Origin: Leucoraja ocellata
Taxonomy: Eukaryota
Assembly (NCBI GenBank): GCA_036785375.1
Contig: JAWMAR010000424.1
Coordinates: 186,001-250,000, forward strand
DNA: 64,000 bases
Direction of reading: 5' to 3'
Every line of letters starts with the position of its first letter. The stretch's first letter is position 1. The notes under the pieces are model-generated. The model ran no database searches. It was not told the origin of the DNA and was given only the letters and a program-made list of their open reading frames with translations. The position numbers and the translations under genes were made by a program. This document shows, piece by piece, positions 15,575 to 58,655 of the stretch.

Positions 15575-15623
15575 ATGAACATTCTGACTCTTTGCAGTGT
15601 GGTCTCATTTATTTCAGCATCAG
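15575..15623 (+). CDS. NCR3LG1: Signal-peptide exon, copy 1, of B7-H6-like gene
   Basis: MNILTLCSVVSFISAS plus G|GTGAAG phase-1 donor. Joins the IgV exon in frame (G+AT = Asp). Confidence 0.65.
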
Positions 15624-16209
15624 GTGAAGTATTACTGATCAGTTTTTCTTACCTTCTCCCTCTCTGTTACACTATACTCTGCACTCAGTTTTATTTCTCT
15701 TTTTGCACTACCTGTTAAACTCATGTTTGGTATGTTTTGTTTAGTTTAGAGATACAGGGCGGAAACATGTCCTTTGGCCCACAGAGTCCGCACCGTCCAG
15801 CGATCCCGTACATTAACACTATCCTACACACACTGTGGACAATTCTTTACACATACACCAAGCTAATGAACCTATAAACCTACACATCTTGGAGTGTGGG
15901 AGGGAAGCGAAAATCTCGCTGAAAACCCACGCAGTCACAGGGAGAATGTAGTCACACAGAAACCCACACAGTCACAGTAGTCGCGATGGAACCCGGGTCT
16001 CCGGTGCTGCAAGCGCTGTAAGGCAGCAACTCTACCGTTGCGCCACCATATGATTGTACACACCTATGTGACATGATCATCCTGGATATCATGCAAAGCA
16101 GAGCTTTGGGCTGTATCGGTACACGTTAAACCAATACTAAAACCAATGCCGTTTTCTTTAAGAGGCATTGGAGGGGAACAAGCAGGAAATGGATGGATAT
16201 AGAACATAT

Positions 16210-19200
16210 AACCATATAACCATATAACAATTACAGCACGGAAACTGGCCATCTCGACCCTTCTAGTCCGTGCCGAACACATAATCTCCCCTAGTCCCAT
16301 ATACCTGCGCTCAGACCATAACCCTCCATTCCCTTCCCATCCATATAACTATCCAATTTATTTTTAAATGATAAAAACGAACCTGCCTCCACCACCTTCA
16401 CTGGAGGCTCATTCCACACAGCTACCACTCTCTGAGTAAAGAAGTTCCCCCTCATGTTACCCCTAAACTTCAGTCCCTTAATTCTCAAGTCATGTCCCCT
16501 TATTTGAATCTTCCCTACTGTCAATGGGAAAAGCTTTTCCATGTCAATTCTGTCTATCCCTCTCATCATTTTAAAAACCTCTATCAAGTCCCCCCTTAAC
16601 CTTCTGCGCTCCAAAGAATAAAGCCCTAACTTGTTCATCCTTTCTCTGTAACTTAGTTGCTGAAACCCAGGCAACATTCTGGTAAATCTCCTCTGTACTC
16701 TCTCTATTTTGTTGACATCCTTCCTATAATTAGGCGACCAAAATTGTACACCATACTCCAGAATTGGCCTCACCAATGCCTTGTACAATTTTAACATTAC
16801 ATCCCAACTTCTATACTCAATGCTCTGATTTATAAAGGCCAGCACACCAAAAGCTTTCTTTACCACCTCATCTACATGAGATTCCACTTTCAGGGAACTG
16901 TGCACAGTTATTCCCAGATCCCTCTGTTCACCTACATTCTTCAATTCCCTACCATTTACCATGTACGTCCTATTTTGATTTGTCCTGCCAAGATGTAGCA
17001 CCTCACATTTATCAGTATTAAACTCCATCTGCCATCTTTCAGCCCACTCTTCCAACTGGCATAAATCTCTCTGTAGACTATGAAACTCTACTTCATTACC
17101 CGCAACCCTACCTATCTTAGTATCATCTGCATACTTACTAATCCAATTTACCACACCATCATCCAGATCATTGATGTACATGACAAACAACAGTGGACCC
17201 AACACAGATCCCTGTGGCACCCCACTCGTCACTGGCCTCCAACCTGACAAACAACCATCCACCATTACTCTCTGGCATCTCCCATTCAGCCACTGTTGAA
17301 TCCATCTTGCTACTCCACCATTAATACCCAACCATTGAACCTTCTTAACCAACCTTCCATGAGGAAACTTGTCAAAGGCCTTACTGAAGTCCATATACAC
17401 AACATCCACTGCTTTACCCTCATCAATTTCCCGAGTAACATCTTCAAAAAATTCAAGAAGATTAGTTAAACATGACCTTCCAGGCACAAATCCATGTTGA
17501 CTGTTCCTAATCAGACCCTGTTTATCCAGATGCTTATATATATTATCTCTAAGTATTCTTTCCGTTAATTTGCCCAATACTGACGCCAAACTACCAGGTC
17601 TATAATTGCTAGGTTTACTCTTAGACCCCTTTTTAAACAATGGAACAACATGCGCAGTACGCCAATCCTCCGGCACTATTCCCGTTTCTAATGACATTTG
17701 AAATATTTCTGCCATAGCCCCTGCTATTTCTACACTAACTTCCCTCAATGTCCTAGGGAATATCCTGTCCGGACCTGGAGACTTATCCACTTTTATATTT
17801 CTCAAAAGTGTCAGTACTTCCTCTTCTTTGATCCTCATAGTTTCCATAGCTACTCTACTTGTTTCCCTTACCTCACATAATTCAATATCCTTCTCCTTGG
17901 TGAATACCGAAGAAAAGAAACTGTTCAATATCTCCCCCATCTCTTTTGGCTCTGCAGATAGTTGGCCACTCTGACTCTCTAATGGACCAATTTTATCCCT
18001 CGTTATCCTTTTGCTATTAATATAGCGGTAGAAACCCTTCGGATTTACTTTTACCTTACTTGCCAAAGCAACCTCATACCTTCTTTTAGCTTTTCTAATT
18101 TCTGTCTTAAGATTCTTTTTACATTCTTTATACTCCTCAAGCACCTCATTTACTCCATGCTGCCTATAACTATTGTAGATCTCCCTCTTTTTCCGAACCA
18201 AGTGTCCAATTTCCCTTGAAAACCATGGCTCTTTACAATTTTTACGATTTCCTTTCAACCGAACAGGGACATAAAGATTCTGTACTCTTAAAATTTCACC
18301 TTTAAATGTACTCCATTTCTCTTCCACATCTTTCCCATAAAACAAACTGTCCCAATTTACTCCTTTTAAATTCTTTCGCATCTCTTCAAAGTTAGCCTTT
18401 CTCCAATCAAAAATCTCAACCCTAGGTCCAGTTTTGTCCCTCTCCATAATTATATTGAAACTAATGGTATTGTGATCACTGGACCTGAACTGTTCCCCAA
18501 CGCATACCTCTGCCACCTGACCCGTCTCATTTCCTAACAGGAGGTCCAGCACCGCCCCTTCTCTAGTAGGTACTTCTATGTATTGTTGCAAAAAACTATC
18601 CTGCACTCATTTTACAAAGTCCAACCCATCCAGCCCATTTACAGAATGTGTTTCCCAGTCTATGTGTGGAAAGTTGAAATCTCCCACAATCACTACCTTG
18701 TGCTTACTACTAATATCTGCAATCTCCTTACATATTTGTTCTTCCAATTCTCGCTCCCCATTTGGCGGTCTATAATACACCCCTATAAATGTTGCTACCC
18801 CTTTCCCATTTCTCAGTTCCACCCAAATAGCCTCCCTAGACGAGCCCTCTAATCTATCCTGCCAAAGCACTGCTGTAATATCTTCCCTGATAAGCAATGC
18901 AACACCTCCACCTCTTGCCCCTCCAATTCTATCACACCTGAAGCAACAAAATCCTGGAGTATTTAGTTTCCAATCACAGCCCTCCTGCAACCATGTTTCA
19001 CTGATCGCCACAACATCATACTTCCAGGTGTCAATCCAGGCTCTAAGTTCATCCACTTTTCTTACAATGCTCCTAGCATTAAAATATACACATTTAAGAA
19101 ACGCACCATCTCTTATTCTCTGATTATTTTCTTTTTCTTCTCTCTCCCCTACATTTTGTGTCAGAGCGCTACCATTCTCTGCCCCCTGCTTCACACACTG

Positions 19201-20306
19201 ATTGCTAGCTTTCCCAACTTGAGTCCCTCCCCCCAACCATACTAGTTTAAAGTCACCCCAGTAGCCTTTGCAAATCTCCCCGCCAGGATATTGGTCCCCC
19301 TTGAGTTCAAGTGCAACCCGTCCTTTCTGTACAGGTCGCACCTTCCCCAAAAGATCCAGAAACTTGAATCCATACCCACTGCACCAGTCCCTCATCCACG
19401 CATTTATCCTCCACCTCGCTCCATTTCTACTCTCACTGTCGCGTGGCACAGGCAGTAATCCTGAGATTGTTACCTTTGCAGTCCTTCTCCTTAACTCTCT
19501 ACCTAACACCCTAAATTCTTCTTTCAGGACCTCTTCTCTTTTTTTTACCTATGTCGTTGGTACCTATATGCACCAAAACCTCAGGCTCCTCTCCCTCCCA
19601 TTTCAGGATTTCTTGGACACGTTCAGACACATCCTTGACCCTGGCACCAGGGAGGCAAACTACCATCCGGGACTCCTGTCTGCGTCCACAGAATCGCCTA
19701 TCCGACCCCCTGACTATAGAGTCCCCTATTACAATTGCCCTCCCCTTCTTTTCCTTACCCTTCTGAGCAACAGGGCCGGTCTTTATGCCAGAGGCCCGGC
19801 CGCTGTCGCCGCCCCCAGGTAGGCTGTCTCCCCCACCCTTACTCAAACATGAGTACTTATTTTCAAGGTGTACAGCCACCGGGGTACTGACCAGTCCCTG
19901 CCTCTGCTCGTTGCCCTTCCTAACTGTGACCCAGTTTTCTGTCTCCCGTGGTCTTGGAGTGACCACCTCCCTGTAACTCCTTTCTATGACCTCCTCGCTC
20001 TCCCTGAGCAGACAGAGGTCATTGAGTTGCTGTTCCAGGTTCCTGACACGGTCCCTTAGGAGCCCTATCTCGACGCAACTTGCGCAGATGTGGACGTCTG
20101 GAGGGCACTCCGACTCCATGACCTCCCACATCTGACATCCAGAACAGTAAACTGCCCTGGCCTTCATTCTCCCCCTTATCCAAATACAATAAAGCCTTAC
20201 AATTACAATACAGATACAATACAAGCCAATCAGCTGCTTCCGCTGGTCCTCTTCCACCGATCAGAGGCTTCCACCAGAATCAGAATCCTTCTCTGGAAGT
20301 GAGATG
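16210..20306 (-). mobile_element. Near full-length young CR1 LINE (ORF1 zinc finger/esterase, ORF2 EN-RT) with few frameshifts
   Basis: ORF1 CSGCQMWE..CASC, GDS and GTND. 771-aa RT segment. 8-bp TSD GAACATAT (16202-16209 and 20307-20314). Empty site present in the duplicate at ~22852. Confidence 0.95.
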
Positions 20307-20456
20307 GAACATATCCAGTTTAAATCGGCATTAATTTAAGGTGGTGGGAAGGAACTGCAGATGCTGGTTAACACCGAAGAGACACAAAATGCTGGAGTAA
20401 TTCAGCGGGTCAGACAGCATCTCTGGAGAGAAGGAATGGAATCAATTTAACATAGC

Positions 20457-20842
20457 GGGAAGGGGTGATCTTATAGAGGTGTACAAAATCACGAGAGGAA
20501 TGGATCAGGTAAATGCACAGAGTCTCTTGCCCGGAGGAGAGGAACCGAGAACCAGAGGATTTAGTTTTAAGGTGAGGAGGGAAAGATTTAATAGGAACCT
20601 GAGCAGTAACTTTTTCATACAAAGGGTGGTGGGTGTATGGAACAAGCTGCCGCGGGAGGTAGTTGAAGCAGGTACTATTGCGACATTTAAGAAACATTTA
20701 GACATGTACATGGATAGGACAGGTTTAGAGGGAAATGGGCTAAACGCAGGCAGATGGGACTAGTGTTGCTGGGACATGTTTGCCGATGTGGGCAAGTTGG
20801 GCTGAAGGGCCTGTTTCCACACTGTATCACTCTATGACTCTA
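20457..20842 (+). mobile_element. Older CR1 3' fragment (duplicated at ~23000-23375)
   Basis: YKITRGMD..RTRG..FFIQRVVGVWNKLP motif and CR1 3' UTR. Confidence 0.75.
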
Positions 20843-21194
20843 TCAAGATTGGCACAGACATTGTGGGCCAAAGGGCCTGTTCCTGCATTGTCTATCATAG
20901 TTACACTTCCATACAGCACAAAAACAGGCCCGTCGGCCTGACTCATGCACACCGACCTAGATGTCCCATCTACACTAGTCGCACCTGCCCGCGTTTGGCC
21001 CATATTCCTCTAAACCTTTTCCCATCCATGTAACTGTACAAATGTCTTTTAAATTTTGTTTTGTAGTACCCGCTTCTTCTACCTCCTCTGGCAGTTTGTT
21101 CCATGCACCCACCATTCTGTGTGAAAATGTTGCTTCTCAAATTTCTATTAAATCTTACCCCTCTCACTTAAACCTCTGTTCCCTGGTTATTGAA

Positions 21195-21606
21195 GATAGA
21201 CACAAAATGCAGGAGTAACGCAACGAGACAGGCAGCATCTCTGGAGAGATGGAATGGGTGACGTTTCAGGGCAAGACCCTTCTTCAGACTGATGTCAGGG
21301 GAGAGGGAGATACATTGATAAGGAAGTGTAAGGTGTGAAAATAGGACAAAGGGAATGTAGATCAAGGACAATGTAGAATAGATCATTGTTCGCTGGTAGA
21401 AGGTAACAACAAAGCAAACAGAGAATAAAATGTAGTTGGAGATGTAAGACTGGTCCGAGAACTGGGAAGGGAGTTGGATGGAGAGAGAGGGAAAGCAAGG
21501 GCTAATTGAAGTTAGAGAAGTCAATGTTCATGCCGCTGGGGTGTAAGCTGCCCAAGCAAAATTGAGGTACTGTTCCTCCAATATGCGCTGGGCCTCACTC
21601 TGACAA
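21195..21606 (-). mobile_element. Penelope-like element 3' end (GIY-YIG C-terminus and terminal repeat with hammerhead core); duplicate at 23728-24195
   Basis: Minus-strand translation QSEAQRILEEQYL.F.LGSLHPSGMN matches the PLE endonuclease end. Contains CTGAAGA-stem-GAAACGTC. Confidence 0.75.
21256..21292 (-). ncRNA. Minimal hammerhead-ribozyme-like motif (Penelope type)
   Basis: CUGAAGA-AGGGucuugCCCU-GAAA-CGUC. Core and stem II intact, stem I only about 2 bp. Same motif at 23789-23825. Confidence 0.5.
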
Positions 21607-22224
21607 CTGACTAAGTTACAAAGAAAGGTTGAACAAGTTAGGTCTTTATTCTTTGGAGCACAGAAGGTTAAGGGGGGACGATAGAAGTCTTTAAAATGAT
21701 GAGAGGGATAGACAGAGTTGACGTGGATAAACTTTTTCCATTGAGAGTAGGGAAGATTCAAACAAGAGGACATGATTTGAGAATTAAGGGACAGAAGTTT
21801 AGGGGTAACATGAGGGGGAACTTCTTTACTCAGTGAGTGGTAGCTGTGTGGAATGAACCTCCAGTGGAAGTGGTGGAGGCAGGTTCGATTTTATCATTTA
21901 AAAATAAATTGGATAGGTATATGGACGGAAAAGGATTGGAGGGTTATGGTCTGAGTGCAGGTAGATGGGACTAGGTGAGAATAAGTGTTCGGCACAGACT
22001 AGAAGGGCCGAGATGGCCTGTTTCTGTGCTGTAATTGTTATATGGTTATAGCTTTACTTTCCTTATCACATGTTCTTTATATTCTTCATCTAGCAAATCA
22101 TTCAGTTACTTTCACTTAGTATTGAATTGTACAAAGGTTGATCTGGCCTAGGAAGTAAAACAGTGTTTCTTACAATAACCAAACCGTTCATGGATATAAA
22201 ATGGTGTAAAGAGGTGAAGCAAGG

Positions 22225-22273
22225 ATGAACATTCTGACTCTTTGCAGTGTGGTCTCATTTATTTCAGCATCAG
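22225..22273 (+). CDS. NCR3LG1: Signal-peptide exon, copy 2, of B7-H6-like gene
   Basis: Same 49-nt coding sequence and donor as 15575-15623. Confidence 0.68.
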
Positions 22274-25101
22274 GTGAAGTATTACTGATCAGTTTTTCTT
22301 ACCTTCTCCCTCTCTGTTACACTATACTCTGCACTCAGTTTCATTTCTCTTTTTGCACTACCTGTTACACTCATGTTTGGTATGTTTTGTTTAGTTTCGA
22401 GATACAGGACGGAAACATGTCCTTCGGCCCACAGAGAACGCACCGTCCAGCGATCCCGTACATTAACACTATCCTACACACACTGTGGACAATTCTTTAC
22501 ACATACACCAAGCTAATGAACCTATAAACCTGCACATCTTGGAGTGTGGGAGGGAAGCGAAAATCTCGCTGAATACCCACGCAGTCACAGGGAGAATGTA
22601 GTCACACAGAAACCCACGCAGTCACAGTAGTCGCGATGGAACCCGGGTCTCCGGTGCTGCAAGCGCTGTAAGGCAGCAACTCTACCATTGCGCCACCATA
22701 TGATTGTACACACCTAAGTGGTATGATCTTCCTGGATGTCATGCAAAGCAGAGGTTTGGGCTGTATCGGTACACGTTAAACCAATACTAAAACCAATGCC
22801 GTTTTCTTTAAGAGGCATTGGAGGGGAACAAGCAGGAAATGGATGGATATAGAACATATCCAGTTTAAATCGGCATTAATTTAAGATGGCGGGAAGGAAC
22901 TGCAGATGCTGGTTAACACCAAAGAGACGCAAAATGCTGGAGTAACTCAGCGGGTCAGACAGCATCTCTGGAGAGAAGGAATAGAATCAATCTAACATAG
23001 CGGGAAGGGGTGATCTTATAAAGGTGTACAAAATCACGAGAGGAATGGATCAGGTAAATGCACAGAGTCTCTTGCCCGGAGGAGAGGAACCATTTAGTTT
23101 TAAGGTGAGGAGGGAAAGATTTAATAGGAACCTGAGCAGTAACTTTTTCATACAAAGGGTGGTGGGTGTATGGAACAAGCTGCCGGGGGAGGTAGTTGAA
23201 GCAGGTACTATTGCGACATTTAAGAAACATTTAGACATGTACATGGATAGGACAGGTTTAGAGGGAAATGGGCTAAACGCAGGCAGGTGGGACTAGTGTT
23301 GCTGGGACATATTTGCCGATGTGGGCAAGTTGGGCTGAAGGGCCTGTTTCCACACTGTATCACTCTATGACTCCATCAAGATTGGCACAGACATTGTGGG
23401 CCAAAGGGCCTGTTCCTGCATTGTCTATCATAGTTATACTTCCATACAGCACAAAAACAGGCCCGTCGGCCTGACTCATGCACACCGACCTAGATGTCCC
23501 ATCCACACTAGTCCCACCTGCCCGCGTTTGGCCCATATTCCTCTAAACCTTTTCCCATCCATGTAACTGTACACATGTCTTTTAAATTTTGTTTTGTAGT
23601 ACCCGCTTCTTCTACCTCCTCTGGCAGTTTGTTCCATGCACCCACCATTCTGTGTGAAAAAGTTGCTTCTCAAATTTCTATTAAATCTTACCCCTCTCAC
23701 TTAAACCTCTGTTCCCTGGTTATTGAAGATAGACACAAAATGCAGGAGTAACGCAACGAGACAGGCAGCATCTCTGGAGAGATGGAATGGGTGACGTTTC
23801 AGGGCAAGACCCTTCTTCAGACTGATGTCAGGGGAGAGGGAGATACATTGATAAGGAAATTTAAGGTTTGAAAATAGGACAAATGGAATGTAGATCAAGG
23901 ACAATGTAGAATAGATCATTGTTCGCTTGTAGAAGGTAACAACAAAGCAAACAGAGAATAAAATGTAGTCGTAGATGTAAGACTGGTCCGAGAACTGGGA
24001 AGGGAGTTGGATGGAGAGAGAGGGAAAGCAAGGGCTACTTGAAGTTAGAGAAGTCAATGTTCATACCGCTGGGGTGTAAGCTGCCCAAGCGAAATATGAG
24101 GTACTGTTTCTGCAATATGCGTTGGGCCTCACTCTGATAATGGAGGCGGCCCAGGACAGAAAGGTCAGTGTGGGAATGGGAGTGGGAGATAAAGTGATTC
24201 CCCTACTCTGGGTAAAAGACACTGTGCATTCATCCTATCTATTCCCCTCAGGATCTAATACACCTTTGTAAGATCACCACTCATCGTCCTGTTCCAGCCT
24301 GCCCAACCTCTCCCTGTAGTTCAGGCCCTGCAGTCTAGGTTCGATATTTGGTTAAGGGTTGCATGGAAACATAGAAACTAGGTGCAGGAGGAGGCCATTC
24401 GGCCCATCGAGCCAGCACCGCCATTCATTGTGATCATGGCTGATCGTCCCCTATCAATAACCCGTGCCTGCCTTCTCCCCATATTCCTTGACTCCACTAG
24501 CCCTTAGAGCTCTATCTAACTCTCTCTTGAATCCATCCAATGACTTGGCCCCCACCGCCCTCCATAGTGGTGAAATAATGGTGCACTGGAGATCCTGGCT
24601 TGGATCCTGACTTCAAGATATGACAGTTTAAGAGGCTTTTGGAGGGCACATGGATATGCAGGGAATGGAGGGATCACGTGCTGGCAGAGGAGATTAGTTT
24701 AATTTGGCATCATATTCGTCACAGACACTGTGGCTGAAGGGTCTGTTCCCATGCTGTACTGTTTTATGCTCTATGTTTAATTGCTGACTGTGTGGAGTTT
24801 GCATGTTCTCCTTGTGACTGTGTGGCCTGGTTAATTGGCAACTACAAATTACCCCTCAGTGTAGGTGGGTGGCAGGAATACAGGGAGGGAGATGATGTAT
24901 GGATTGATTAATAGATTATAAGGGAGGGGGGAATACTGAGGCAGCATCCTTCCATACTGATAGCTTTCCTCTGTGCTAGCTGCCATAGACTCATGGGTTG
25001 AATGGCCTTCTACATATTGATTGATTGAAAACTGCAGCCCTTTCTCTTCTCTCCGTCTCTTGGAGCGGCACCCGGTCCAACCGAGCCCCAGGCTGTTGCA
25101 T

Positions 25102-30697: not shown

Positions 30698-31030
30698 ATA
30701 CCATTGAGCTGGAGATATTTGCAAGTCCACTGATGGTATTTGTGAATGACAATGTGACTCTGAAATGCGTGGTTACTGGGTCTGGAAACGTTGACTTAAA
30801 AACAATGGCATTCAGATGGACCCTTAATGAGAAAACAGAAGTGTTTTCCTTTCAAGGAGGAACTAAACAGCAAAATCGATCTGGTGCCAATATTTCTGAG
30901 GCTGAATTACTGAAGGGAAACGTTTCAATTCATCTTCCAAAAGTTCAGATCTCTGACGAAGGAATGTACACATGCACTGTGTTTATCTTCCCTGAAAGTG
31001 CCAGTCGCTTTTCAACAATGCACGTGTTAG
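30698..31030 (+). CDS. NCR3LG1: IgV-domain exon of B7-H6 (NCR3 ligand 1)-like protein
   Basis: TTTTTTAG acceptor, G|GTAAGA donor, 333 nt. NDNVTLKC..MAFRW..VFSF..RSGA..KGNVSIHLP..DEGMYTCTVFIFP parallels human B7-H6 NDNVTIFC..MGITW..VFEF..RPGA..SGDASLRLP..EAGEYRCEVVVTP (recalled, not aligned). Confidence 0.85.
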
Positions 31031-35420: not shown

Positions 35421-35744
35421 TCAGAACTTCAAGTTATAGGGATGTCACTGATGGAACTGTCCCAGGTAAAGATGCCATTGCTACTGGTAGGGCATAGGGA
35501 GGTGGACATCTCACAAGATTATCTAACTCCTCCTCATTTTCATTACCAAATAGGGTCGTCGTGCCAGACATGAAGTCTCCTCCAGAGGATTTACCAGTAC
35601 TGGGTTTATTTTTTACGAACCATCACCTGTTTCTCACCTCCTGTCTGTCTTTTAATTCTATTCTCTTGTTCCTCTGCCCACTGGCATTCTAGTTGCAATA
35701 ATTTCCATCCTTTCCTAGTGCTATCCTAGTTTCTTAACTCTATC

Positions 35745-37883: not shown

Positions 37884-37884
37884 A

Positions 37885-45880: not shown

Positions 45881-45999
45881 ATCTGGTTATGTCTAACAAG
45901 TCATGTTCTAGAAAATTAATCTAGATATATACAACTTTGCAGATTGCCATATGTCTGGAAACTTGTACATAAAGGACCACTGATCATTCCCAGAGTCTG

Positions 46000-46300
46000 G
46001 GGCAGCACAGAATTGCATCAAGTAGAGTTGCTGCCTCATGGCTCCAGAGACCGGGGTTCGATCCTGACCACGGGTGCCGTCTGTGGGGAGTTTGCCCGTG
46101 CTCCCTGTAACCACGTGGGTTTCCTCCAGGTGCTCCAGTTTCCACCAGCATCACAAGGACGTGCAGGATTGTAGGTTAATTGGCCCTCTGTAAATTGCCC
46201 CTAGTTTGTAGGGAGAAGATGAGAAAGTGGGATAACATAGAACTAGTGTGAACAGGTGATCGATGGTCAGCATGGTCTTGGTGGGCTTTAGGGTCTGATC
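46000..46300 (+). mobile_element. HE1-like tRNA-derived SINE (duplicate at ~56890-57190)
   Basis: GTAGAGTTGCTGCCTCA..GGTTCGATCC B-box head followed by the conserved body. Confidence 0.7.
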
Positions 46301-47119
46301 AATCAATTCAATCTCTCAATTCAATTCAATACAATTCATCAAATCAAGGATTATTAACACATTCCTGGCCATTTAAGTCAATCTATTGCTTCTTTTATTC
46401 AAAGACCAGAAATCAAATTACTCTTTAATTATAATCTGCATCATGGTGATGATATGTATAATCCTTGGAATCTTAAATGCTGCAGCTGTTTCACACCCGG
46501 GAAATAAACACAATATGTACCAGTTAAGTACAGAACCTAGAACAGTACAGCACAGGAGCAGGCCCTTCAGCCCACAATGTTGAACATGATGCCAAGATAA
46601 ACTCATCTTCTCTGCCTGTGTGTGGTCCATGTCCCTCCATTCCCTGCATATCCATGTGTCTATTTATAAACCTCCCAAACGCCACTATCGTTCGTATCTG
46701 CCTCCACCACACATAGCAGTGCAGTTCTCGGCATCCACTCTCTGTTTAAAAACATGCCCTGTACAACTTTACTCTTCTCACCTTAAAACTATGCTCTCCA
46801 GATTCTCACTAATACACCCTGGGTAAATATTCTGACTATACCTTATCTATTTCTCTCACAATTGTATATACTTCCATCAGTTCTCCCCTCCACTTCCGTC
46901 ATTCCAAAGAAAACAATCCAAATCTGTCCAACCTCTCAGTGTCGTTGATACCCCTAATCCAAGCAAGTGCTCTGATAAACCTCTTCTGCACCCTTTCCAA
47001 AGCCTCCACATTCTTTATGTTATGGGGTGACCAGAACTACACCAATTCCATGAAGGATTAAACCAATCTGATAAGTAGAATAAGTTAGTGATACATTCTG
47101 TGGAATATTGTACATAAAT

Positions 47120-47258
47120 CAAAGTGCTGGAGGAACTGAACGGGTCAGGCAGCATCTGTGGAAGGAATGGAGAGGTGATGTTCCCTCCACAGATGCTGCC
47201 TGACCCACTGAGTTCCTCCAGCACTTTGTGTTTTGTTCAAGATTCCAGCATCTGCAGA
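47120..47258. repeat. Penelope-derived palindrome (duplicate at ~58020-58157)
   Basis: ~43-bp arms CAAAGTGCTGGAGGAACT..GCAGCATCTGTGGA and TCCACAGATGCTGC..AGTTCCTCCAGCACTTTG. Confidence 0.8.
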
Positions 47259-48938
47259 TTCTAAAGAAACCTCTTACTCTACAGGGCAATACTAAAAGCT
47301 TCTTTAGGTATGTTAAGAGAAAAATATTTAGTAGGTATGTCTGTCCTCTAGTAATATAACTGCACAAAAAACACAACAGTGAATAGAACTGGTTCATTTG
47401 ACTCTCCATTAATGAAGTTGGATCATTGTGTTTTAATTCTTGTAATTTTTCGTTTAATTCGTGTTTTTTAAACAATTATTACTTCACCAATTTTGAAATT
47501 TCTACTATCCAGGGGCAATAGGCAGGGATGCGCATTATCACCCCTGCTATTTGCTCTTGTGATAGAGCCCCTAGCAGAAAGTATAAGAATGCATCCGAAT
47601 ATCCATGGTTATAATACCAAACACTCAAACAATAAAATTTCATTATATGCAGATGGCGTATTATTATACATTACAAAATCGCAAATCAGCATACCAAATA
47701 TATTAAATTTAATAGAGGAATTTGGTTCCTTTTCAGGATATAGAATAAATTGGAATAAAAGCGAAATTATGACGATAAAACCTCAAGAGACGACACCTTT
47801 TAAAATTCCCCTTTAGAATTGCAACAGAAACATTTAAATATTTGGGTATCCAAATTACTAGAAAATTTAAATCTTTATTTAATGCAAACTATATGCCTTT
47901 ACTAACTAAATTAAATGCGTTGGAAAAAACTCCTGATGTCTTTAATAGGCAGAATAAATGCTATAAAAATGATTTTTTGACCACAAATTTTGTATTTATT
48001 TCAATCAATACCAATATACCTTCCTAAAAAATTCTTTAAAAAACTTGACTGATATTATAAACTTCATATGGGACTATAAATCACATAGAATTCAAAGAAA
48101 ACATCTGAGTAAACCTAAAAAATTTGGCGGACTGACACTCCCCAATTTTTTGTATTACTATTGGGCAGTGAACATCAAAAATGCAATTCATTGGTTGGAT
48201 AAGTCTGCTCAACAAGTAGATTGGATAATAATGCAGAAAGAGGATTGCTCGCCTTTTAATATAGGAGCGATCCTTCTCTCCCCGATAAAACGGGAATAAT
48301 ACAATATACAAGAAGAATCCAATTATTCATAGTACAATACGAATTTGGAAACAAATAAAATTAACTCTCAAATTAAGAAATCTATCACTTCTTTCTCCAA
48401 TAGTTAATAACCCGTCACTTAAACCATCTATTATTGATAAAACATTTACCCATTGGGAAAGAACAGGAATTAAAACGCTTGGAGACATGTATGAAATGGG
48501 AAAACTTTTATCATTTCAACAACTACAACTAAAATACAACCTGAAAAGTAATCAATATTTCAAATACCTACAAATGCGAGATTACTTGAAGAAACACACA
48601 CAAGAATATCAAACCTTAACCTCAGATCTATTAGATGAAGGAATGAACAGAAAAGCGGAATCAAGTAATTTAATATCATATTTGCATAACATCATTTTAA
48701 ATATAGAAATACCATCGTCAGAGGCAATTAGAATGGACTGGGGACAAGAATTATCTATAAAAATTCCGAATGACAGATGGGAAAAATACTTGCTATATGT
48801 ACATAAATGCTTGATTAATGTAAGACATAACTTAATTCAATTTAAAATTTTAAATAGATTATATTACTCGAAAACCAAACTGAATAAAACATTTTTCCAA
48901 ATGTTTCTCCCATCTGTGATAAATGCTTATCTCAAAAT

Positions 48939-51831
48939 ATGTATGAGAATAAGAGAATAAGAGAGGGTGGGTTTCTTAAATGTGTATATTTTAATGCTAG
49001 GAGCATTGTACGAAAGGTGGATGAGCTTAGAGTCTGGATTGACACCTGGAAGTATGATGTTGTGGCGATCAGTGAAACATGGTTGCAGGAGGGCTTTGAT
49101 TTGAAACTAAATATTCCAGGATTTTGTTGCTTCAGGTGTGATAGAATTGGAGGGGCAAGAGGTGGAGGTGTTGCATTGCTTATCAGGGAAGATATTGCAG
49201 CAGTGCTTTGGCAGGATAGATTAGAGGGCTCGTCTAGGGGGGCTATTTGGGTGGAACTGAGAAATGGGAAAGGGTAGCAACACTTATAGGGGTGTATTAT
49301 AGACCACCAAATGGGGAGCGAGAATTGGAAGAGCAAATATGTAAGGAGATTGCAGATATTAGTAGTAAGCACAAGGTAGTGATTGTGGCAGATTTCAATT
49401 TTCCACACATAGACTGGGAAACACATTCTGTAAATGGGCTGGATGGGTTGGAGTTTGTAAAATGTGTGCAGGATAGTTTTTTGCAGCAATACATAGAAGT
49501 ACCTACTAGAGAAGGGGCGGTGCTGGACCTCCTGTTAGGAAATGAGACGGGTCAGGTGGCAGAGGTATGCTTTGGGGAACAGTTCGGGACCAGTGATCAC
49601 AATACCATTAGTTTCAATATAATTATGGAGAGGGGCAGAACAGGACCTAGGGTTGAGATTTTTGATTGGAGAAAGGCTAACTTTGAGGAGATGCGAAAGG
49701 ATTTAAAAGAAGTAAATTGGGACATTTTGTTTTATGGGAAAGATGTGGAAGAGAAATGGAGTACATTTAAAGGTGAAATTTTAAGAGTGCAGAAACTTTA
49801 TGTCCCTGTTCGGTTGAAAGGAAATCGTAAAAATTGTAAAGAGCCATGGCTTTCAAGGGAAATTGGACACTTGGTTCGGAAAAAGAGGGAGATCTACAAT
49901 AATTATAGGCAGAATGGATTAAATGAGGTGCTTGAGGAGTATAAAGAATGTAAAAAGAATCTTAAGAAAGAAATTAGAAAAGCTAAAAGAAGATATGAGG
50001 TTGCTTTATAAACGAAATAAAATTTCGTTCAGACTTCGGTCTNNNNNNNNNNNNNNNNNNNNNNNNNNNNNNNNNNNNNNNNNNNNNNNNNNNNNNNNNN
50101 NNNNNNNNNNNNNNNNNNNNNNNNNNNNNNNNNNNNNNNNNNNNNNNNNNNNNNNNNNNNNNNNNNNNNNNNNNNNNNNNNNNNNNNNNNNNNNNNNNNN
50201 NNNNNNNNAAATCCGAAGGGTTTCTACCGCTATATTAATAGCAAAAGGATAACGAGGGATAAAATTGGTCCATTAGAGAGTCAGAGTGGACAACTATCTG
50301 CAGAGCCAAAAGAGATGGGGGAGATATTGAACAGTTTCTTTTCTTCGGTATTCACCAAGGAGATTCACCGGGAGATTGGCGTACTGCGCATGTTGTTCCA
50401 TTGTTTAAAAAGGGGTCTAAGAGTAAACCTAGCAATTATAGACCTGTTAGTTTGACGTCAGTGGTGGGCAAATTAATGGAAAGAATACTTAGAGATAATA
50501 TATATAAGCATCTGGATAAACAGGGTCTGATTAGGAACAGTCAACATGGATTTGTGCCTGGAAGGTCATGTTTGACTAATCTTCTTGAATTTTTTGAAGA
50601 GGTTACTCGGGAAATTGATGAGGGTAAAGCAGTGGATGTTGCATATATAGACTTCAGTAAGGCCTTTGACAAGGTTCCTCATGGAAGGTTGGTTAAGAAG
50701 GTTCAATGGTTGGGTATTAATGGTGGAGTAGCAAGATGGATTCAACAGTGGCTGAATGAGAGATGCCAGAGAGTAATGGTGGATGGTTGTTTGTCAGGTT
50801 GGAGGCCAGTGACTAGTGGGGTGCCACAGGGATCTGTGTTGGGTCCACTGTTGTTTGTCATGTACATCAATGATCTGGATGATGGTGTGGTAAATTGGAT
50901 TAGTAAATATGCAGATGATACTAAGATAGGAGGGGTTGTGGATAATGAAGTAGATTTTCAAAGTCTACAGAGAGATTTATGCCAGTTGGAAGAGTGGACT
51001 GAAAGATGGCAGATGGAGTTTAATGCTGATAAGTGTGAGGTGCTACATCTTGGCAGGACAAATCAAAATAGGACGTACATGGTAAATGGTAGGGAATTGA
51101 AGAATGTAGGTGAACAGAGGGATCTGGGAATAACTGTGCACAGTTCCCTGAAAGTGGAATCTCATGTAGATAGGGTGGTAAAGAAAGCTTTTGGTGTGCT
51201 GGCCTTTATAAATTAGAGCATTGAGTATAGAAGTTGGGATGTAATGTTAAGATTGTACAAGGCATTGGTGAGGCCAATTCTGGAGTATGGTGTACAATTT
51301 TGGTTGCCTAATTATAGGAAGGATGTCAACAAAATAGAGAGAGTACAGAGGAGATTTACTAGAATGTTGCCTGGGTTTCAGCAACTAAGTTACAGAGAAA
51401 GGTTGAACAAGTTAGGGCTTTATTCTTTGGAGCGCAGAAGGTTAAGGGGGGACTTGATAGAGGTTTTTTAAATGATGAGAGGGATAGACAGAGTTGACGT
51501 TGAAAAGCTTTTCCCACTGAGAGTAGGGAAGATTCAAACAAGGGGACATGACTTGAGAATTAAGGGACTGAAGTTTAGGGGTAACATGAGGGGGAACTTC
51601 TTTACTCAGTGAGTGGTGGCTGTGTGGAATGAGCTTCCAGTGAAGGTGGTGGAGGCAGGTTCGTTTTTATCATTTAAAAATAAATTGGATAGTTATATGG
51701 ACGGGAAGGGAATGGAAGGTTATGGTCTGAGCGCAGGTATATGGGACTGGGGGAAAATATGTGTTCGGCACGGACTAGAAGGGTCGAGATGGCCTGTTTC
51801 CGTGCTGTAATTGTTATATGGTTATATGGTT
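48939..51831 (+). mobile_element. CR1 LINE, 5'-truncated, spanning an assembly gap
   Basis: EN and RT ORFs closely match 16210-20306. AAAAT duplicated at 48934-48938 and 51832-51836. Confidence 0.9.
50043..50208. other. Assembly gap (N run)
   Basis: 166 N. Confidence 1.
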
Positions 51832-52759
51832 AAAATGCTACTATAGTACACTCTTTTGTCTCTTGCATAAAACTTCATACATTTTGGAATGAAATCTTTG
51901 GAATTTTTACAAAATTATTTAAAATAAAATTGAACCCCAATACAGAACTGATTATCTTTGGATCAATGGAAGTGTAAGCTGACTTTGTTTCAAAAATGTC
52001 TCCTTAATTGTGGCTTAATAACGGCAAAAAAATTATACTTAAATTCTGGAAAAATGCACCCACACCAACGCTCAAAATGTGGATTTCAAACATGTCGGAA
52101 ATGTTACATCTTGAAGATATGAGATCAAAAATGCAATTCATGGGTTGGACAAGTCTGCTCAACAAGTAGACTGGATAATAATGCAGAAAGAGGATTGCTC
52201 TCCTTTTAAAATTCCCCTTTAGATTTGCAACAGAAAAATTAATCCTATCAGGCAAATCAGACCAATTCTTAAAGATTTGGTCTCCCTTTATCAACTTATT
52301 ACAAGCACATGGTGCAACGCAAACTTAGAAATTAACTGTTTCAGAACTGGGTGAGGGGTGGGTAAAGATACGAAGTAGGTATATCCCTTTCAATTTCTCT
52401 TTTTTCTTCTCTTTTTTTCTTCTCTATTCCTTTTCTTTCTTATTTCACCTTCTTGTTTTCTTTCGGGCTATAAGGCCTTATGAGCTCTTTTTTTCCCCTA
52501 TTTTTTCACGGATTAACAATATTACTACTTTATATAATATTCCCTTCCTCTCTATTTCTTGCTTTTCTTACTCTTCTTTTTTACTATTAAATTTAAAATA
52601 AGAAGTTGTACATGAAATGTAACATGTTATTCATGTCTTATATTATTGTACACTACTTCTAATAAAAATATTTTAAAACAAATTAAAAAAAGAATGCTCC
52701 CCTCTCTGCAACTTAACTGAACAGCGCAGCAACAAGCTATTCAGCCCACAATGTCTACT

Positions 52760-53225
52760 CAAGTGTTCAAGTTCAAGTGAGTGTTCAAGTGAGTTTATTG
52801 TCATGTGTCCCTGTATAGGACAATGAAATTCTTGCTTTGCTTAAGCACACAGAAAATTGTAGGCATTTACTACAAAACAGATAAATGTGTCCATATACCA
52901 TGATATAAATATATACATACATGAGTAAATAAACTGATAAAGTGCTAATAGCAGAAAGTGGTTATTAATAATCAGAGTTTTGTCCGAGCCAGGTTTAATA
53001 GCCTGATGGCTGTGGGGAAGTAGCTATTCCTGAACCTGGTTGTTGCAGTCTTCAGGCTCCTGTACCTTCTACCTGAAGGTAGCAGGGAGATGAGTGTGTG
53101 GCCAGGATGGTGTGGGTCTTTGATGATACTGCCAGACTTTTTGAGGGAGCGACTGCGATAAATCCCCTCGATGGAAGGAAGGTCAGAGCCGATGATGGAC
53201 TGGGCAGTGTTTACTACTTTTTGTA
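52760..53225 (-). mobile_element. Rex1/Babar LINE 3' end; related pieces at ~54290-54630, ~39715-40015 and ~55030-55325
   Basis: QKVVNTAQSIIGSDLPSIE..IIKDPHHPGH..LLPSGRRYRS..RFRNSYFP and (TTGAAC)n tail. Confidence 0.8.
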
Positions 53226-53426
53226 CTCTGAACATAATGCCAAGACCATCTCTTATCTACCTGTACTTATGTGTAGCCCATATCCCTCCATTCCCTGCAT
53301 TTCCATGTGTTTATCAGTGCAGTAGATTTAGTTTATCGTCATATCAAGGTGTGCATTTTGTTGCTTTTGTTGTGTGCTAACCAGTCAGTGGAAAGACAAT
53401 TACAATTGAGCCATCTATAGTGTACA

Positions 53427-53683
53427 ACTGGGCGAAGCAGGATCACCACGGGAGTGCGTGCAGCTGGGAAGGGGCGCGCCACAGAAACATAGAGTAAACG
53501 CGCCGCGCGTGGGGCTCGGGCCACTTTGGCTTCTACTGCGACGCCCACCCAGCTGTGTCCCATATGTGAACGAGCCTTCCAGGCCCAGATCGGGTTCACC
53601 AGTCACCTGGGGACCCACTAACAAAAACACTGAAGTCATCGTCTTCTTCGACTATGCAGGATGAACAACAAACAACAACAACA
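53427..53683 (+). mobile_element. RTE-clade LINE 3' end
   Basis: CPICERAFQAQIGFTSHLGTH* C2H2-like RTE terminus, short 3' UTR and (CAA)n tail. Confidence 0.75.
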
Positions 53684-53784
53684 GATACATGATCAGAGAA
53701 TAACGTTCAGTGGAAGAGAAGGCCAGTGAAGTCCAATCAAAGCTAGTCCATGGCTCACCAAAGAGGTAGATGGTATTTCAGCAC

Positions 53785-54282
53785 TTTGAGGAAGGACATT
53801 CTTGCTATTGAAGGAGTGCAGCGTAGGTTTACGAGGTTAATTCCCGGGATGGCGGGACTGTCATATGCTGAGAGAATGGAGCAGGTGGGCTTGTACACTC
53901 TGGAGTTTAGAATGATGAGAGGATATCTCATTGAAACATATAAGATTGTTAAGGGCTTGGACACACTAGAGGCAGGAAACATGTTCCCGATGTTGGGGGA
54001 GTCCAAAACCAGGGGCCACAGTTTAAAAATAAGGAGTAAGCCATTTAGAATGGAGACGAGGAATCACTTTTTCTCACAGAGAGTGGTGAGTCTCTGGATG
54101 CTTTCAAGAGAGAGCTAGATAGGGCTCTTAAAAATAGCGGAGTCAAGGGATATGTGGAGAAGGCAGGAACAGGGTACTGATTGGGGATGATCAGCCATGA
54201 TCACATTGAATGGCGGTGCTAGCTTGAAGGGTCAAATGGCCTACTCCTGCACCTGTTGTCTTTTGTCTATTGTCTATTGTTA
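53785..54282 (+). mobile_element. CR1 3' fragment with (CTATTGT)n tail
   Basis: [28 protein letters not shown]. Confidence 0.85.
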
Positions 54283-55661
54283 TCTAGTTGGTGATAGGAT
54301 GGTTCCGTTGCCTAATAACAGCTGGGAAGAAACTGTCCCTGAATCTGGAGGTGTGCATTTTCACACTTCTATATCCTTTGTCTGATGGGAGAGGGGAGAA
54401 GAGGGAGTGGCCAGGATGCGACTCATCCTTGATTATGTTGCTGGCCTTGCCGAGGCAGCATGAGGTATAAATGGAGTCAATGGAAGGGAGGTTGGTTTGT
54501 GTGATGGTCTGAGTTGTGTCCACAATTCACTGCAATATCGTGTGGTCTTGGTTGCAGCTGTTCCCAAACAAGGCGATAAAATGCTTCCCACAGTGTATCT
54601 GTAGAATTTGGTGGGAGTTGTAGGGGATGTTTTGGATGTGCCTATCAAAAGGTCTCCTAAATGTCACTATTGTATCTGCCTCCACCACCACCCCTGTTAT
54701 AGTGCATTCCAGGCATCCACCACCCTCTGTGTAAAAAAACTTGCCCCACACATCTCCTTTAAACTTTGCTCCTCTAACCTTAAAGCAGCAGCTTCTAGTA
54801 TTTGATATTTTCATCCTGGGAAAATGGTTCTGACTGTCATCCCTACCTGCGCCTCTCATAATTTGATATACTTCAATCAGGTCTTTCTACAACCTCTGGC
54901 ATTCCAGAGAAAACAATCCAAGTCTGTCCAAGCTCTCCCTGTAGCTAATGCCCTCGAATCCATCCATTCTGGGAAATCTCCTCTGCACTCTCTCCAAACC
55001 TTCCAGACCCTTTCTGTAATGGGGTGAACAGAAGTGTGAAAACGCACACCTCCAGATTCATGGACAGTTTCTTCCCAGCTATTATCAGGCAGCAGAACCA
55101 CCCTACCACAAGTGGAGAGTAGTCCTGAACTACTATCTACTTCATTCGTGACCTTTGGACTATCTTTAATCTGACTTTACTGGCTTTATTTTGCACTAGG
55201 CGTAATTATCATGCATCTGTACACTGTGAATGGTTTGATGTAATCATGTATTGTCTTTCCACTGACTGGTTAGCATGCAACCAAAGTATTTTATGTACCT
55301 CTTTACATGTGACAATAAACTAAACTGACGTGAAACAGAACTGCCCACAACAGTCTAAATGCAGGTGAAACAAAGTCCCATGAAACTGAATCATGACTTC
55401 CTGACTCTTATATTCAAAGCCCCAACCAATGAATGCAAGCACACCATGTGCCTACTTTATCATATTAATGTCTTCAGATGCTAATGGTTCTAACATTCCT
55501 AACTCCGATGAAGAGACCCCAGCCTGAGGAAATGACCCTGTTCCATTCCCTGGCAATGTTTTGGACCTGCTTAGTGCTTCCAGTATTGTCTGCTTTTGTT
55601 TTCTATCTCCAGCACCTGCAGTCTCTTCCTTTAATATTTAAATGTACATTTTTTAATGCAG

Positions 55662-55973
55662 CTCGACCAAACGTTATATTGACACAGTCCATCACAACTG
55701 AGAAAGGTTCAGAAGTTTCTCTGACATGCAAAGCCAGTGGATTTTACCCTCGACCGATAAAGATCACCTGGGTGAAGATAACAGGAAGAAGAAATGTTTC
55801 CATGACTAACTATACAACTCAAATCACTGCCAATGGTGATCGCACTTTCAATGCTGAGAGTGAACTGAAGATTCACCCGACATTGAAGGATAATGGTGAT
55901 CAATACAGATGCGTTGTGACACATCAAACATTACCGAATGGTCTCACAATAGAACCTTCTCTCATCGTGCCAG
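55662..55973 (+). CDS. NCR3LG1: IgC1-domain exon, copy B, of B7-H6-like protein
   Basis: Same splice sites and 312-nt length as copy A. Five substitutions. Confidence 0.85.
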
Positions 55974-58239
55974 GTGAGTTGAACACAGTGCGAGAGTCTA
56001 GGACCAGAGGCTACAGCCTCAGAATCAAGGACGCACCTTTAGACAGATGTGGAGGAATTTCTTTAGTCAGAGGGCGGTGAATCTTTGGAATTCATTGCCA
56101 CAGACGGCTGTGGAGGCCAAGTCATTGGACATTTTTAAGGCAGATTGTTGGATTCTTGATTAGTACGGGTGTCGGGGTTATGGGGACAAGCTAGGAGATT
56201 GCGATTGGGTGGGAAAGATAGATCAGCCATAATTGAAAGGTGGAGTAGACTTGATGAATTAGTCTGAATTGCCTAATTCTGCTCCTATCATATGAATTTG
56301 AACTTATCTAAGCATTTGGCCCTTATCCCTCTAAACTTTTCTTATCCATGTACTATACAAAAATATTTTAAATGCTGTTATAGTACCAGCCCTAACTCCC
56401 TCCTCTGGCAGCTTGTTCCATTTACCCACCGCCCTCTGAATGTGACCGTTTCCCCTCAGCTTCCTATCTTTCCCCACTCACCTATGTCCCCTGGTTCTTG
56501 ATTCCCCTTGGCTGGGGGGTAAAAGTCTCTGTGCATCCACCCCATCTATTCCTCTCATGATTCAATACACATTTAATAATTAAATAATTAGAGGTGTTAG
56601 CCTTTTGTAATGAGCGCTGATGTACATCATCCATGAATAAAGTGAGGGGTCAGATGTGAAGTGCATCAGGACCCTCAGCTCTGGAGATAACTGTTTCACT
56701 GATGGAGTCAGTGTGTGGCTCAGCGGCAAAATGGATTCAGGGCAATGAGCAGTGTTCCACAGTTGAATCACCACCGGTTCAATGTTTGTCTGGTTATGTC
56801 TAACAAGTCAGGTTCTAGAAAATTAATCTAGATATATACAACTTTGCAGATTGCCATATATCTAGGACCACTGATCATTCCCAGAGTCTGGGGCAGCACA
56901 GAATTGCATCAAGTAGAGTTGCTGCCTCATGGCTCCAGAGACCGAGGTTCGATCCTGACCACGGGTGCCGTCTGTGTGGAGTTTGCCCGTGCTCCCTGTG
57001 ACCACGTGGGTTTCCTCCGGGTGCTCCAGTTTCCACCAGCATCACAAGGACGTGCAGGATTGTAGATTAATTGGCCCTCTGTAAATTGCCCCTAGTTTAT
57101 CGGGAGAAGATGAGAAAGTGGGATAACATAGAACTAGTGTGAACAGGTGATCGATGGTCAGCATGGTCTTGGTGGGCTTTAGGGTCTGATCAATCAATTC
57201 AATCTCTCAATTCAATTCAATACAATTCATCAAATCAAGGATTATTAACACATTCCTGGCCATTTAAGTCAATCTATTGCTTCTTTTATTCAAAGACCAG
57301 AAATCAAATTACTCTTTAATTATAATCTGCATCATGGTGATGATATGTACAATCCTTGGAATCTTAAATGCTGCAGCTGTTTCACACCCGGGAAATAAAC
57401 ACAATATGTACCAGTTAAGTACAGAACCTAGAACAGTACAGCACAGGAGCAGGCCCTTTGGCCCACAATGTTGAACATGATGCCAAGATAAACTCATCTT
57501 CTCTGCCTGTGTGTGGTCCATGTCCCTCCATTCCCTGCATATCCATGTGTCTATTTATAAACCTCCCAAACGCCACTATCGTTTGTATCTGCCTCCACCA
57601 CACATAGCAGTGCGTTCTCGGCATCCACTCTCTGTTTAAAAACATGCCCTGTACATCTTGTTTAAACTTTACTCTTCTCACCTTAAAACTATGCTGTCCA
57701 GATTCTCACTAATACACCCTGGGAAAAAATTCTGACTGCACCTTATCTATTTCCCTCACAATTGTATATACTTCCATCAGTTCTCCCCTCCACTTCCGTC
57801 ATTCCAAAGAAAACAATCCAAATCTATCCAACCTCTCAGTGTAGCTGATCCCCCTAATCCAAGCAAGCGCTCTGATAAACCTCTTCTGCACCCTTTCCAA
57901 AGCCTCCACATTATTTCTGTTATGGGGTGACCAGAACTACACCAATTCCATGAGGGATTAAACCAATCTGATAAGTAGAATAAGTTAGTGATACATTCTG
58001 TGGAATATTGTACATAAATCAAAGCGCTGAAGGAACTGAACGGGTCAGGCAGCATCTGTGGAAGGAATGGAGAGGTGATGTTCCCTCCACAGATGCTGCC
58101 TGACCCACTGAGTCCTCCAGCACTTTGTGTTTTGTTCAAGATTCCAACATCTGCAGATTCTAGTGTCTCTGATGAATGTTGTAAATGGCCTAGTATATTT
58201 ATTATTCACTTTTTCATAGATCTATGCCTGTTTTAACAG

Positions 58240-58341
58240 AACGTGGAAAAACTGGACTGATTATTGGAGGCATCTGTGGCATCGGCATATTTCTCTGTGT
58301 TGTGTGGATAGCATTTTATATCTGGAAGAAGAAATTTAAAG
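58240..58341 (+). CDS. NCR3LG1: Transmembrane exon of B7-H6-like protein
   Basis: TTTTAACAG acceptor, G|GTAAAC donor, 102 nt, phase 1-1. (E)RGKTGLIIGGICGIGIFLCVVWIAFYIWKKKFK: hydrophobic span plus basic stop-transfer. Confidence 0.85.
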
Positions 58342-58577
58342 GTAAACGCTTTTCCATCTTATAGCAATCAACAAAAAAAGTGAAAATTCTGACTGTCTAC
58401 CCTATCTATGTCTCTCATCATTTTATTTACTTCCATCAGATCTCCCCTCAACCTCTGGCATTCCAGAGAAAGATATATTTTCCAGAAAGCTGGAATTGAT
58501 CTGTGTATTTTTATACTTTTTAAACTGGCACCTGGTCAGCTTGTTTCCCGGCTAATTGTCTTGTTTATGTTGTTCAG

Positions 58578-58655
58578 GACAGGTAAATACAACGGACGTT
58601 GAAGACCCAAACCGTACACCACTTATCGCCAAGACGGGCTCACAAACTGCACGAG
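58578..58655 (+). CDS. NCR3LG1: Cytoplasmic exon of B7-H6-like protein
   Basis: TGTTGTTCAG acceptor, G|GTAATT donor, 78 nt, phase 1-1. (G)QVNTTDVEDPNRTPLIAKTGSQTAR. Confidence 0.7.

Follow-up and report, generated by a model that had tools for sequence, protein, structure and literature searches.

A B7-H6-like gene of the skate Leucoraja ocellata with leader and C1 exons doubled in the assembly and a transmembrane end probably exchanged between paralogs

Introduction

Can a gene for a putative ligand of natural killer (NK) cells be caught in the course of gaining an Ig domain, or do its doubled exons reflect the way in which two haplotypes were assembled? The question is raised by a window of 64,000 nucleotides (nt) from the skate Leucoraja ocellata (assembly GCA_036785375.1, contig JAWMAR010000424.1, positions 186,001 to 250,000 of the forward strand; coordinates below are positions in this window). 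An earlier note, made from the letters alone, had described here a hidden gene resembling B7-H6 (NCR3LG1) and remodelled by two internal tandem duplications, one of its leader exon and one of its IgC1 exon. We find that the gene belongs to a family already known, that its ortholog is annotated and that the doubling bears no mark of selection. We favor, at a probability of about one half, a young and drifting duplication that would give a product with the order V-C1-C1-transmembrane (TM).

A seven-exon gene with an ortholog in the little skate

The gene consists of the following exons.

15575..15623, plus strand: leader exon L1, 49 nt; ATG, 16 codons plus 1 nt, GT donor; 16 of 16 residues identical to the little-skate leader
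22225..22273, plus strand: leader exon L2, identical in sequence to L1; no usable in-frame acceptor
30698..31030, plus strand: IgV exon, phase 1-1, one copy
40352..40663, plus strand: IgC1 exon C1a, phase 1-1, splice sites intact
55662..55973, plus strand: IgC1 exon C1b, phase 1-1; 1 of 103 amino acids (aa) differs from the little skate
58240..58341, plus strand: TM exon, phase 1-1; nearest sequence is the skate paralog P0011
58578..58655, plus strand: first cytoplasmic (tail) exon, GT donor at 58656

The seven exons with canonical splice sites, all in phase 1, that the earlier note had listed hold up at exact coordinates and in frame. Each exon is followed by GT at its 3' end, AG lies directly 5' of all five internal exons, and every junction is in phase 1. 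The V, C1a, C1b and TM exons have lengths that are multiples of three, with phase 1 at both ends. Any combination of one leader with one C1 yields an open frame of 293 aa from leader through V, C1 and TM to the tail, and the frame through V, C1a and C1b is also open (397 aa). In Pfam, the V-set domain scores 42.1 bits and the C1-set domain 53.4 bits (C1a) and 56.1 bits (C1b), and all three pass the cut-off.

A search with the V exon picked out a single protein from 126 candidates: XP_055505900.1 of the little skate, 293 aa long and named 'CD276 antigen-like'. It matches the window gene in length and in exon-derived layout. Leader and tail are 100% identical, the C1 copies are 97-99% identical, and the matches are 102/103 for C1b, 30/33 for TM and 101/110 for V. 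It differs in that its model has a single leader and a single C1. The Pfam scores and this matching protein indicate that the seven exons are not a product of chance. V has diverged from the little skate more than C1b has (9/110 versus 1/103, Fisher p=0.019), an excess that would fit a variable binding end.

The 3' end of the gene model has an alternative, in which read-through past 58655 meets a stop at 58661-58663. The sequence from there to 64000 yielded no additional tail exon. A second TM exon of the ray and shark type was not found in the window either; only the acceptor at 58240 was convincing among 389 candidates scanned.

The doubled leader and C1 blocks

The doubling of leader and C1 proposed in the earlier note is seen in the assembly, and in both cases the exon lies inside a larger doubled block.

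14981..21606, no strand assigned: leader block copy 1; ~2.5 kb together with a 4.1-kb long interspersed nuclear element (LINE), specific to this copy, at ~16205-20300
21613..24140, no strand assigned: leader block copy 2; the junction before it (21607-21612) has no gap and contains a short repeated motif
38758..47263, no strand assigned: C1 block copy 1 (unit 1), with a copy-specific 4.4-kb LINE at ~41479-45881 and without 6.8 kb of unit 2
47264..47292, no strand assigned: C1 block junction, a 29-nt filler with no N
47293..58162, no strand assigned: C1 block copy 2 (unit 2), ending 77 nt 5' of the TM exon; it keeps the continuation of a decayed LINE frame

The two leader blocks differ at 58 of 2503 columns (2.3%), and the 165 nt upstream of the leader ATG differ at one base between the copies. 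L1 and L2 are identical first coding exons and are not symmetric; joining L1 to L2 disrupts the frame. The 300 nt before L2 contain 24 AG sites, 11 of them in frame with L1. Nine of these 11 run into stops, and the remaining two have a pyrimidine fraction of 0.20-0.25 and no pyrimidine tract. Because the leader exons are asymmetric and cannot be chained, the earlier argument that phase 1 lets both duplicates be used without a frameshift applies to C1 and fails for the leader. The leader copy would be at most a second promoter or a redundant alternative first exon for the same protein.

The C1 units differ at 86 of 4073 columns (2.1%). Unit 2 holds an extra 6.8 kb at 48043-54821. We considered this segment as an insertion in unit 2 and rejected that view; loss from unit 1 is the better explanation, because the decayed LINE frame continues into the segment. 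The splice regions of C1a and C1b differ at a single base, which lies 31 nt upstream. With near-identical splice regions and a 1-1 phase, a real duplication would be expected to have both C1 exons included by default splicing.

C1a has an open frame and both cysteines. It differs from C1b at five positions, all five non-synonymous; with a neutral expectation of 0.71 each, this gives p=0.18, and five changes are too few to decide. Since this count is compatible with neutrality, it gives no sign of constraint on C1a. C1b agrees with the little skate at four of the five sites. The changes private to C1a are at 40553, 40568 and 40646, and one of them removes a proline conserved in the family (present in 91/103 other V-C1 units, with leucine in 0/103). 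We suspect that the extra C1 copy is drifting, although its substitutions do not prove decay. Against this reading, C1a still scores 53 bits on C1-set versus 56 for C1b, which makes any decay slight and perhaps meaningless.

These observations suggest the following course of events. The gene would encode a type I membrane glycoprotein in which V, the presumed receptor-binding end, stands on a C1 stalk, with a ligand role that we infer. Two young intragenic tandem duplications, if the doubling seen in the assembly is real, would have copied the leader block and the C1 block. The leader copy would serve only as a redundant alternative first exon. The extra C1, having kept its splice sites and frame, would lead by default to V-C1-C1-TM, a protein one Ig domain taller, perhaps made beside V-C1-TM, and its substitutions suggest that it drifts and is not preserved. 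In an earlier and separate event, to which an observed discordance between exons points, the TM and tail exons would have been exchanged with a second skate paralog.

Ectodomains of the V-C-C-TM type are known in the wider family, in 3 of 108 scored relatives (lungfish, coelacanth and one more), and a paralog of the thorny skate has the order V-C1-V-C1. The textbook precedent for tandem copying of Ig exons within a gene of the B7 family is 4Ig B7-H3 (CD276), as described in parts of PMC3172298 and PMC9979440. In 4Ig B7-H3, however, the V-C pair is doubled and the form is widespread in mammals and expressed, whereas in the window only C1 and the leader are doubled, in a recent and unproven event.

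Real duplication or two haplotypes in tandem

We lean towards the doubling being real, whether it is drifting or selected. The alternative that survives best, and that we regard as a serious minority possibility, is a false duplication, in which two divergent haplotypes were assembled in tandem at two sites of large indels. The real gene would then have a single leader and a single C1, with two alleles, one of them carrying the C1a changes.

The junctions themselves speak on both sides. The N runs in the window are at 50043-50208 and 58824-58987. Neither duplication junction contains N; the two runs, however, show that the assembly has gaps. At both junctions there are filler bases, and neither is a plain overlap. 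The filler is not an exact match to the true left or right flank, which argues against a false join. No template of at least 10 nt was found within the window for the leader-junction filler, and no match of at least 11 nt elsewhere in the window for the C1-junction filler. Long repeats elsewhere in the window were assembled through, which also argues against an artefact. Differences between copies crowd beside both junctions: the first 300 columns of the C block have 17 (p=3e-4) and the last 300 columns of the leader block 14 (p=0.011), both in windows picked post hoc. Parts of PMC8366565 describe clusters of differences at the junctions of replication-based rearrangements.

Contigs of four of the 24 listed runs (X1, X3, X5 and X6, from three organisms that may not be of the window's species) could be aligned to 38400-47420. 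Such contigs can prove presence, not absence. In X1, X3 and X6, most or all of the C1 exon lies on one unbroken contig each (608, 608 and 534 letters). At 40553 and 40568 these three runs have, at full depth, the letter of C1b, and X1 and X3 have it at 40646 as well. The three retain the C1a letter at 40625, as judged from difference counts, and X1 also does so at 40660. All four runs span an empty site for the LINE at 41478-45882. We infer that the C1 duplication is not fixed across related samples; if real, the two duplications are probably polymorphic or lineage-restricted.

Several observations weigh against a real duplication. Unit 1 differs from X1 at 14/1864, from X5 at 36/2086, from X3 at 19/1644 and from X6 at 30/1684 positions; over the intervals covered by X1, X5, X3 and X6, units 1 and 2 differ from each other at 29, 39, 25 and 18 positions. 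The distance between the units (1.1-1.9%) is thus about that between unit 1 and the samples in the same intervals (0.75-1.8%), and the units do not form a clade. Furthermore, each unit shares letters with a different sample, unit 1 with X1 (40660, 38804) and unit 2 with X5 (46459, 38804), and X1 and X5 are different samples of one organism. Equal distances and shared letters make units 1 and 2 look like two allelic lineages. Among the 40 rows listed, three single-copy sites (41396, 46838 and 47054) set unit 1 apart from all four runs, and at each of them unit 2 has the letter of the runs. The orthologs of little skate, stingray and devil ray have a single C1. The two blocks are near-equal in divergence (2.1 and 2.3%) and both have copy-specific multi-kb indels, where assemblers miss haplotype collapse. 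The difference clusters at the junctions would also be expected at poorly polished contig ends. Parts of PMC9516828 document false exon gains on one scaffold and false duplications that were sometimes joined gaplessly by wrong gap filling.

The allelic appearance of the units would also fit a duplication formed between homologs or one that later recombined with single-copy chromosomes; a real polymorphic duplication recombining in this way would likewise end up as a patchwork of different alleles. No contig among the 28 listed spans 47263-47293, a result that is uninformative, as the flanks are high-copy repeats. Joints between 38759 and 47294 in sample contigs were considered as a single-copy allele and rejected: their sides of 22-26 letters and their high depth point to other LINE copies. 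One contig of X5 matches the C1 exon up to 40531 and then continues with 45 unlike letters, a hint that this sample has an allele interrupted within the exon.

Could the extra C1 have been recruited?

It is doubtful that the duplications are real and already in use. In that case selection would maintain the expression of a V-C1-C1-TM ligand, and of a second promoter, and the distance from V to the membrane would be altered at the NK-cell contact. The intact frame, cysteines and splice regions of C1a would allow such use, and the few V-C-C-TM relatives and the V-C1-V-C1 paralog of the thorny skate speak for it too. Exon duplication also yielded the functionally distinct 4Ig B7-H3, according to parts of PMC3172298. 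However, the zero synonymous differences and the lost proline of C1a give no sign of purifying selection, the leader copies encode one peptide and cannot be chained, and related samples show a single C1b-like contig. The earlier note's view of a possible snapshot of exon shuffling is not borne out, since the extra C1 shows no sign of constraint and a false duplication of haplotypes is a live alternative. We return here to a young, drifting duplication as the preferred reading.

A member of the B7-H6 family

A B7-H6-like identity, as the earlier note proposed, is supported by profile and fold and agrees with a quick tree. Among solved structures, the little-skate ortholog matches human B7-H6 at 95-97 bits, B7-H3 at 56 bits per repeat (112 summed), SIRPalpha at 55 bits and TAPBPR at 51. 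A profile built from seven cartilaginous-fish proteins scores 150-151 bits for human B7-H6, 113 for B7-H3 (two repeats), 74-76 for TAPBPR and 48-57 for SIRP proteins (SIRPalpha 57). Foldseek, queried with a predicted model of the little-skate ortholog (pLDDT, the model's confidence score, 85), places B7-H6 chains at all of ranks 1-7. Human B7-H6 (PDB 3pv6, 4zso and 6yjp), which also has a V-C1 ectodomain, is thus the best match in sequence, profile and fold; it is about 30% identical to the window protein, which belongs to a multi-paralog family. The Gag-like tail of human B7-H6, described in parts of PMC11476788, is not found in the window.

After the little skate, the next relatives are stingray and devil-ray proteins named NCR3LG1-like. 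The best 150 matches of an exhaustive search include NCR3LG1 of wallaby and antechinus and many proteins of sharks, rays, skates and chimaeras, with 20 of the matches named. Wallaby, antechinus and kiwi have relatives annotated as NCR3LG1, whereas those of turtles, rays and one shark are annotated as NCR3LG1-like. A quick tree of 105 V-C1 units, with 21 isoform rows omitted, places the window gene inside a clade of 29 rows (support 92) that has at least three subclades and whose named members are all cartilaginous fish; it adjoins a clade of 48 rows (support 87) with named tetrapod NCR3LG1. This tree has no B7-H3, SIRP or tapasin outgroups and its deep forks are weak, and orthology with human NCR3LG1 may not be one-to-one. 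Of the comparison with B7, SIRP and tapasin families that the earlier note had called for, the profile and fold parts put B7-H6 on top.

The skate has several paralogs of the B7-H6 (NCR3LG1) family, this locus among them. Flajnik et al. (2012) reportedly found B7-H6 to be multi-copy in some cold-blooded vertebrates and to co-evolve with NKp30.

The gene is not hidden, as the earlier note had it, because the near-identical little-skate protein is annotated, under another name. That name, 'CD276 antigen-like', was probably given because the B7-H3 score sums two 56-bit repeats to 112. Sequence comparison and the predicted fold support a correction of the label to B7-H6-like. The layout predicted from sequence and model is that of a type I membrane protein with leader, IgV, IgC1 and one TM segment. 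Identity to B7-H3 is 26-27% in structural alignment, and its 56 bits per V-C unit are fewer than those of B7-H6; CD276 is highly conserved, as stated in parts of PMC13262535. For TAPBPR the score is 74-76 versus 151 bits, and in the window gene V directly follows the leader, whereas tapasin and TAPBPR have a large N-terminal domain ahead of V-C1. SIRP has a V-C1-C1 ectodomain and scores 48-57 versus 151 bits; the orthologs have a single C1, and the extra C1 of the window is a near-identical recent copy. A gene of B7-H3, TAPBPR/tapasin or SIRP descent is thus very improbable: the RefSeq name, the highest single-sequence total (112 bits, for 4Ig B7-H3) and the nearness of NCR3LG1 to TAPBP/TAPBPL among human Ig-superfamily proteins (parts of PMC13262535) favor it, but the 112 bits are two repeats of 56 set against 97 for B7-H6, profile and fold searches put B7-H6 first by a wide margin, and the 293-aa protein lacks the tapasin-type N-terminal domain.

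A literature search, with subscription papers mostly outside its coverage, returned no paper about the gene itself or about duplicated B7-H6 exons in cartilaginous fish.

A probable exchange of the TM and tail exons

The V-C1 part of the window gene is 52-57% identical to subclade A of sharks and rays (P0002, P0003, P0008, P0012 and P0020; support 99) and 34-40% identical to subclade B. The TM and tail parts show the reverse: 21-37% identity to subclade A and 42/59 (71%) to P0011. This skate protein belongs to subclade B, and its V-C1 shares 39% identity with that of the window gene. In the pairs compared within subclades, TM identity was always lower than V-C1 identity (V-C1/TM 91/64, 85/67, 72/41 and 69/50), and between the little-skate ortholog and P0011 the relation is reversed (40/77). 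The V-C1 data reject a grouping with P0011 (p-AU, approximately unbiased test, 0.0002), and the TM tree joins the two at 99. For TM, grouping of the window gene with its ray relatives is rejected (p-AU 0.012), and grouping with all five of subclade A (0.127) or with subclade B (0.56) is not; these groups were chosen after the trees had been seen, on an alignment of 43 columns.

We consider it likely that the lineage of the window gene and a second skate paralog traded TM and tail exons, and this mosaic is a better supported sign of exon exchange than the doubling of leader and C1. The exchange would predate the split between the little skate and the window species, unless the model of P0011 is misjoined. 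That caveat counts against the mosaic, as the P0011 sequence comes from gene prediction. Sharks and rays of subclade A have a common start of the TM exon, which the window gene lacks and of which none is left in the window. Its absence suggests that the window gene was the recipient, and the tests do not settle the direction. P0011 extends beyond the shared tail. The GT donor at 58656 may therefore work, or may have worked in the past.

P0020 and P0056, bamboo-shark paralogs that fall into different subclades, lie on one contig and have neighbouring accession numbers. Their placement suggests a tandem cluster in which exon exchange could occur.

Behind the predicted TM segment, and hence on the cytoplasmic side, many B7-H6-like relatives (P0004-P0153) carry between one and six C1-like domains. 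Such domains, frequent in relatives with long tails, were not found in the window. One relative, P0117, carries a tachylectin domain.

A ligand for NKp30?

In the human complex, as given in parts of PMC3135353, 11 residues of B7-H6 make contact, Thr127 and Pro128 account for 44% of contacts and Lys130 forms a salt bridge. The contact surface comprises the FG loop (Thr127-Pro128-Leu129-Lys130) and the BC and C'C'' loops. The window protein is identical to human at 3 of the 11 residues (Met61, Gly83 and Pro128), and Thr127 and Lys130 are changed. The T-P-x-K/R loop is kept in 52/103 relatives, including other shark and skate paralogs, and is changed in the window gene. The skate receptor may have co-evolved with the changed contact surface. 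Judged by its sequence, the window protein probably acts like a B7-H6-type surface ligand, and other paralogs would be better candidates for the partner of NKp30. Its role as an NK ligand is suggested by family membership only, and binding to NKp30 is unproven because cartilaginous fish hold several paralogs. Genes and accessions for nurse shark NCR3 are given in parts of PMC12227049.

If the C1 duplication is real and expressed, it would be a very young domain gain in an NK-ligand family, one that could be studied within a population before selection sorts it. The mismatch of TM and tail suggests that signalling ends are passed from one paralog to another within this family. It is unlikely, though worth stating, that both hold together, with an ectodomain and a TM/tail end from different ancient paralog lineages and a real, segregating C1 duplication spliced into a taller ligand. 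If so, the gene would offer a natural experiment on whether NKp30 signalling in the oldest jawed vertebrates is tuned by the height of the ligand and by the swapping of tails. Should the doubling prove to be an assembly error, the locus is simply heterozygous for large insertions. B7 exon duplication and multi-copy B7-H6 families are known in kind, and there is no new class of system here.

Mobile elements and other features of the window

The intron between V and C1 holds a retrovirus-like element.

32196..38496, minus strand: long terminal repeat (LTR) element in the V-C1 intron, with retrovirus-like remnants and 612-bp LTRs that differ at one site

It has a 4-bp target duplication and broken remnants of RNase H and an integrase-like protein. 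We take its primer site to resemble tRNA-Ser. The near-identical LTRs and decayed interior suggest a recent, non-autonomous insertion. We also weighed whether the pair 32196-32807 and 37885-38496 might be a third duplication on the scale of an exon, and discarded the idea because it is the LTR pair. The elements in the doubled blocks are presumably LINEs, to judge from their motifs. In one LINE copy, at 50008-50208, an N run is preceded by 35 non-LINE bases within this stretch, which suggests an unresolved nested insertion.

The intron between leader and V holds a 21-bp minisatellite of 63 copies (25105-26419) and a related 28-bp array (30134-30600). Between these arrays lies a decayed element on the minus strand (~27300-29950), presumably Gypsy-like. 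Upstream of the gene, at 10450-13450, is another decayed element, with remnants of a reverse transcriptase and of a recombinase-like protein, which we assume to be DIRS-like.

No identifiable neighbour gene was found in the window. A stretch on the plus strand at 120-228, with an acceptor-like site, 36 charged residues and a stop, could be the last coding exon of an upstream gene; it had no significant match among the proteins compared.

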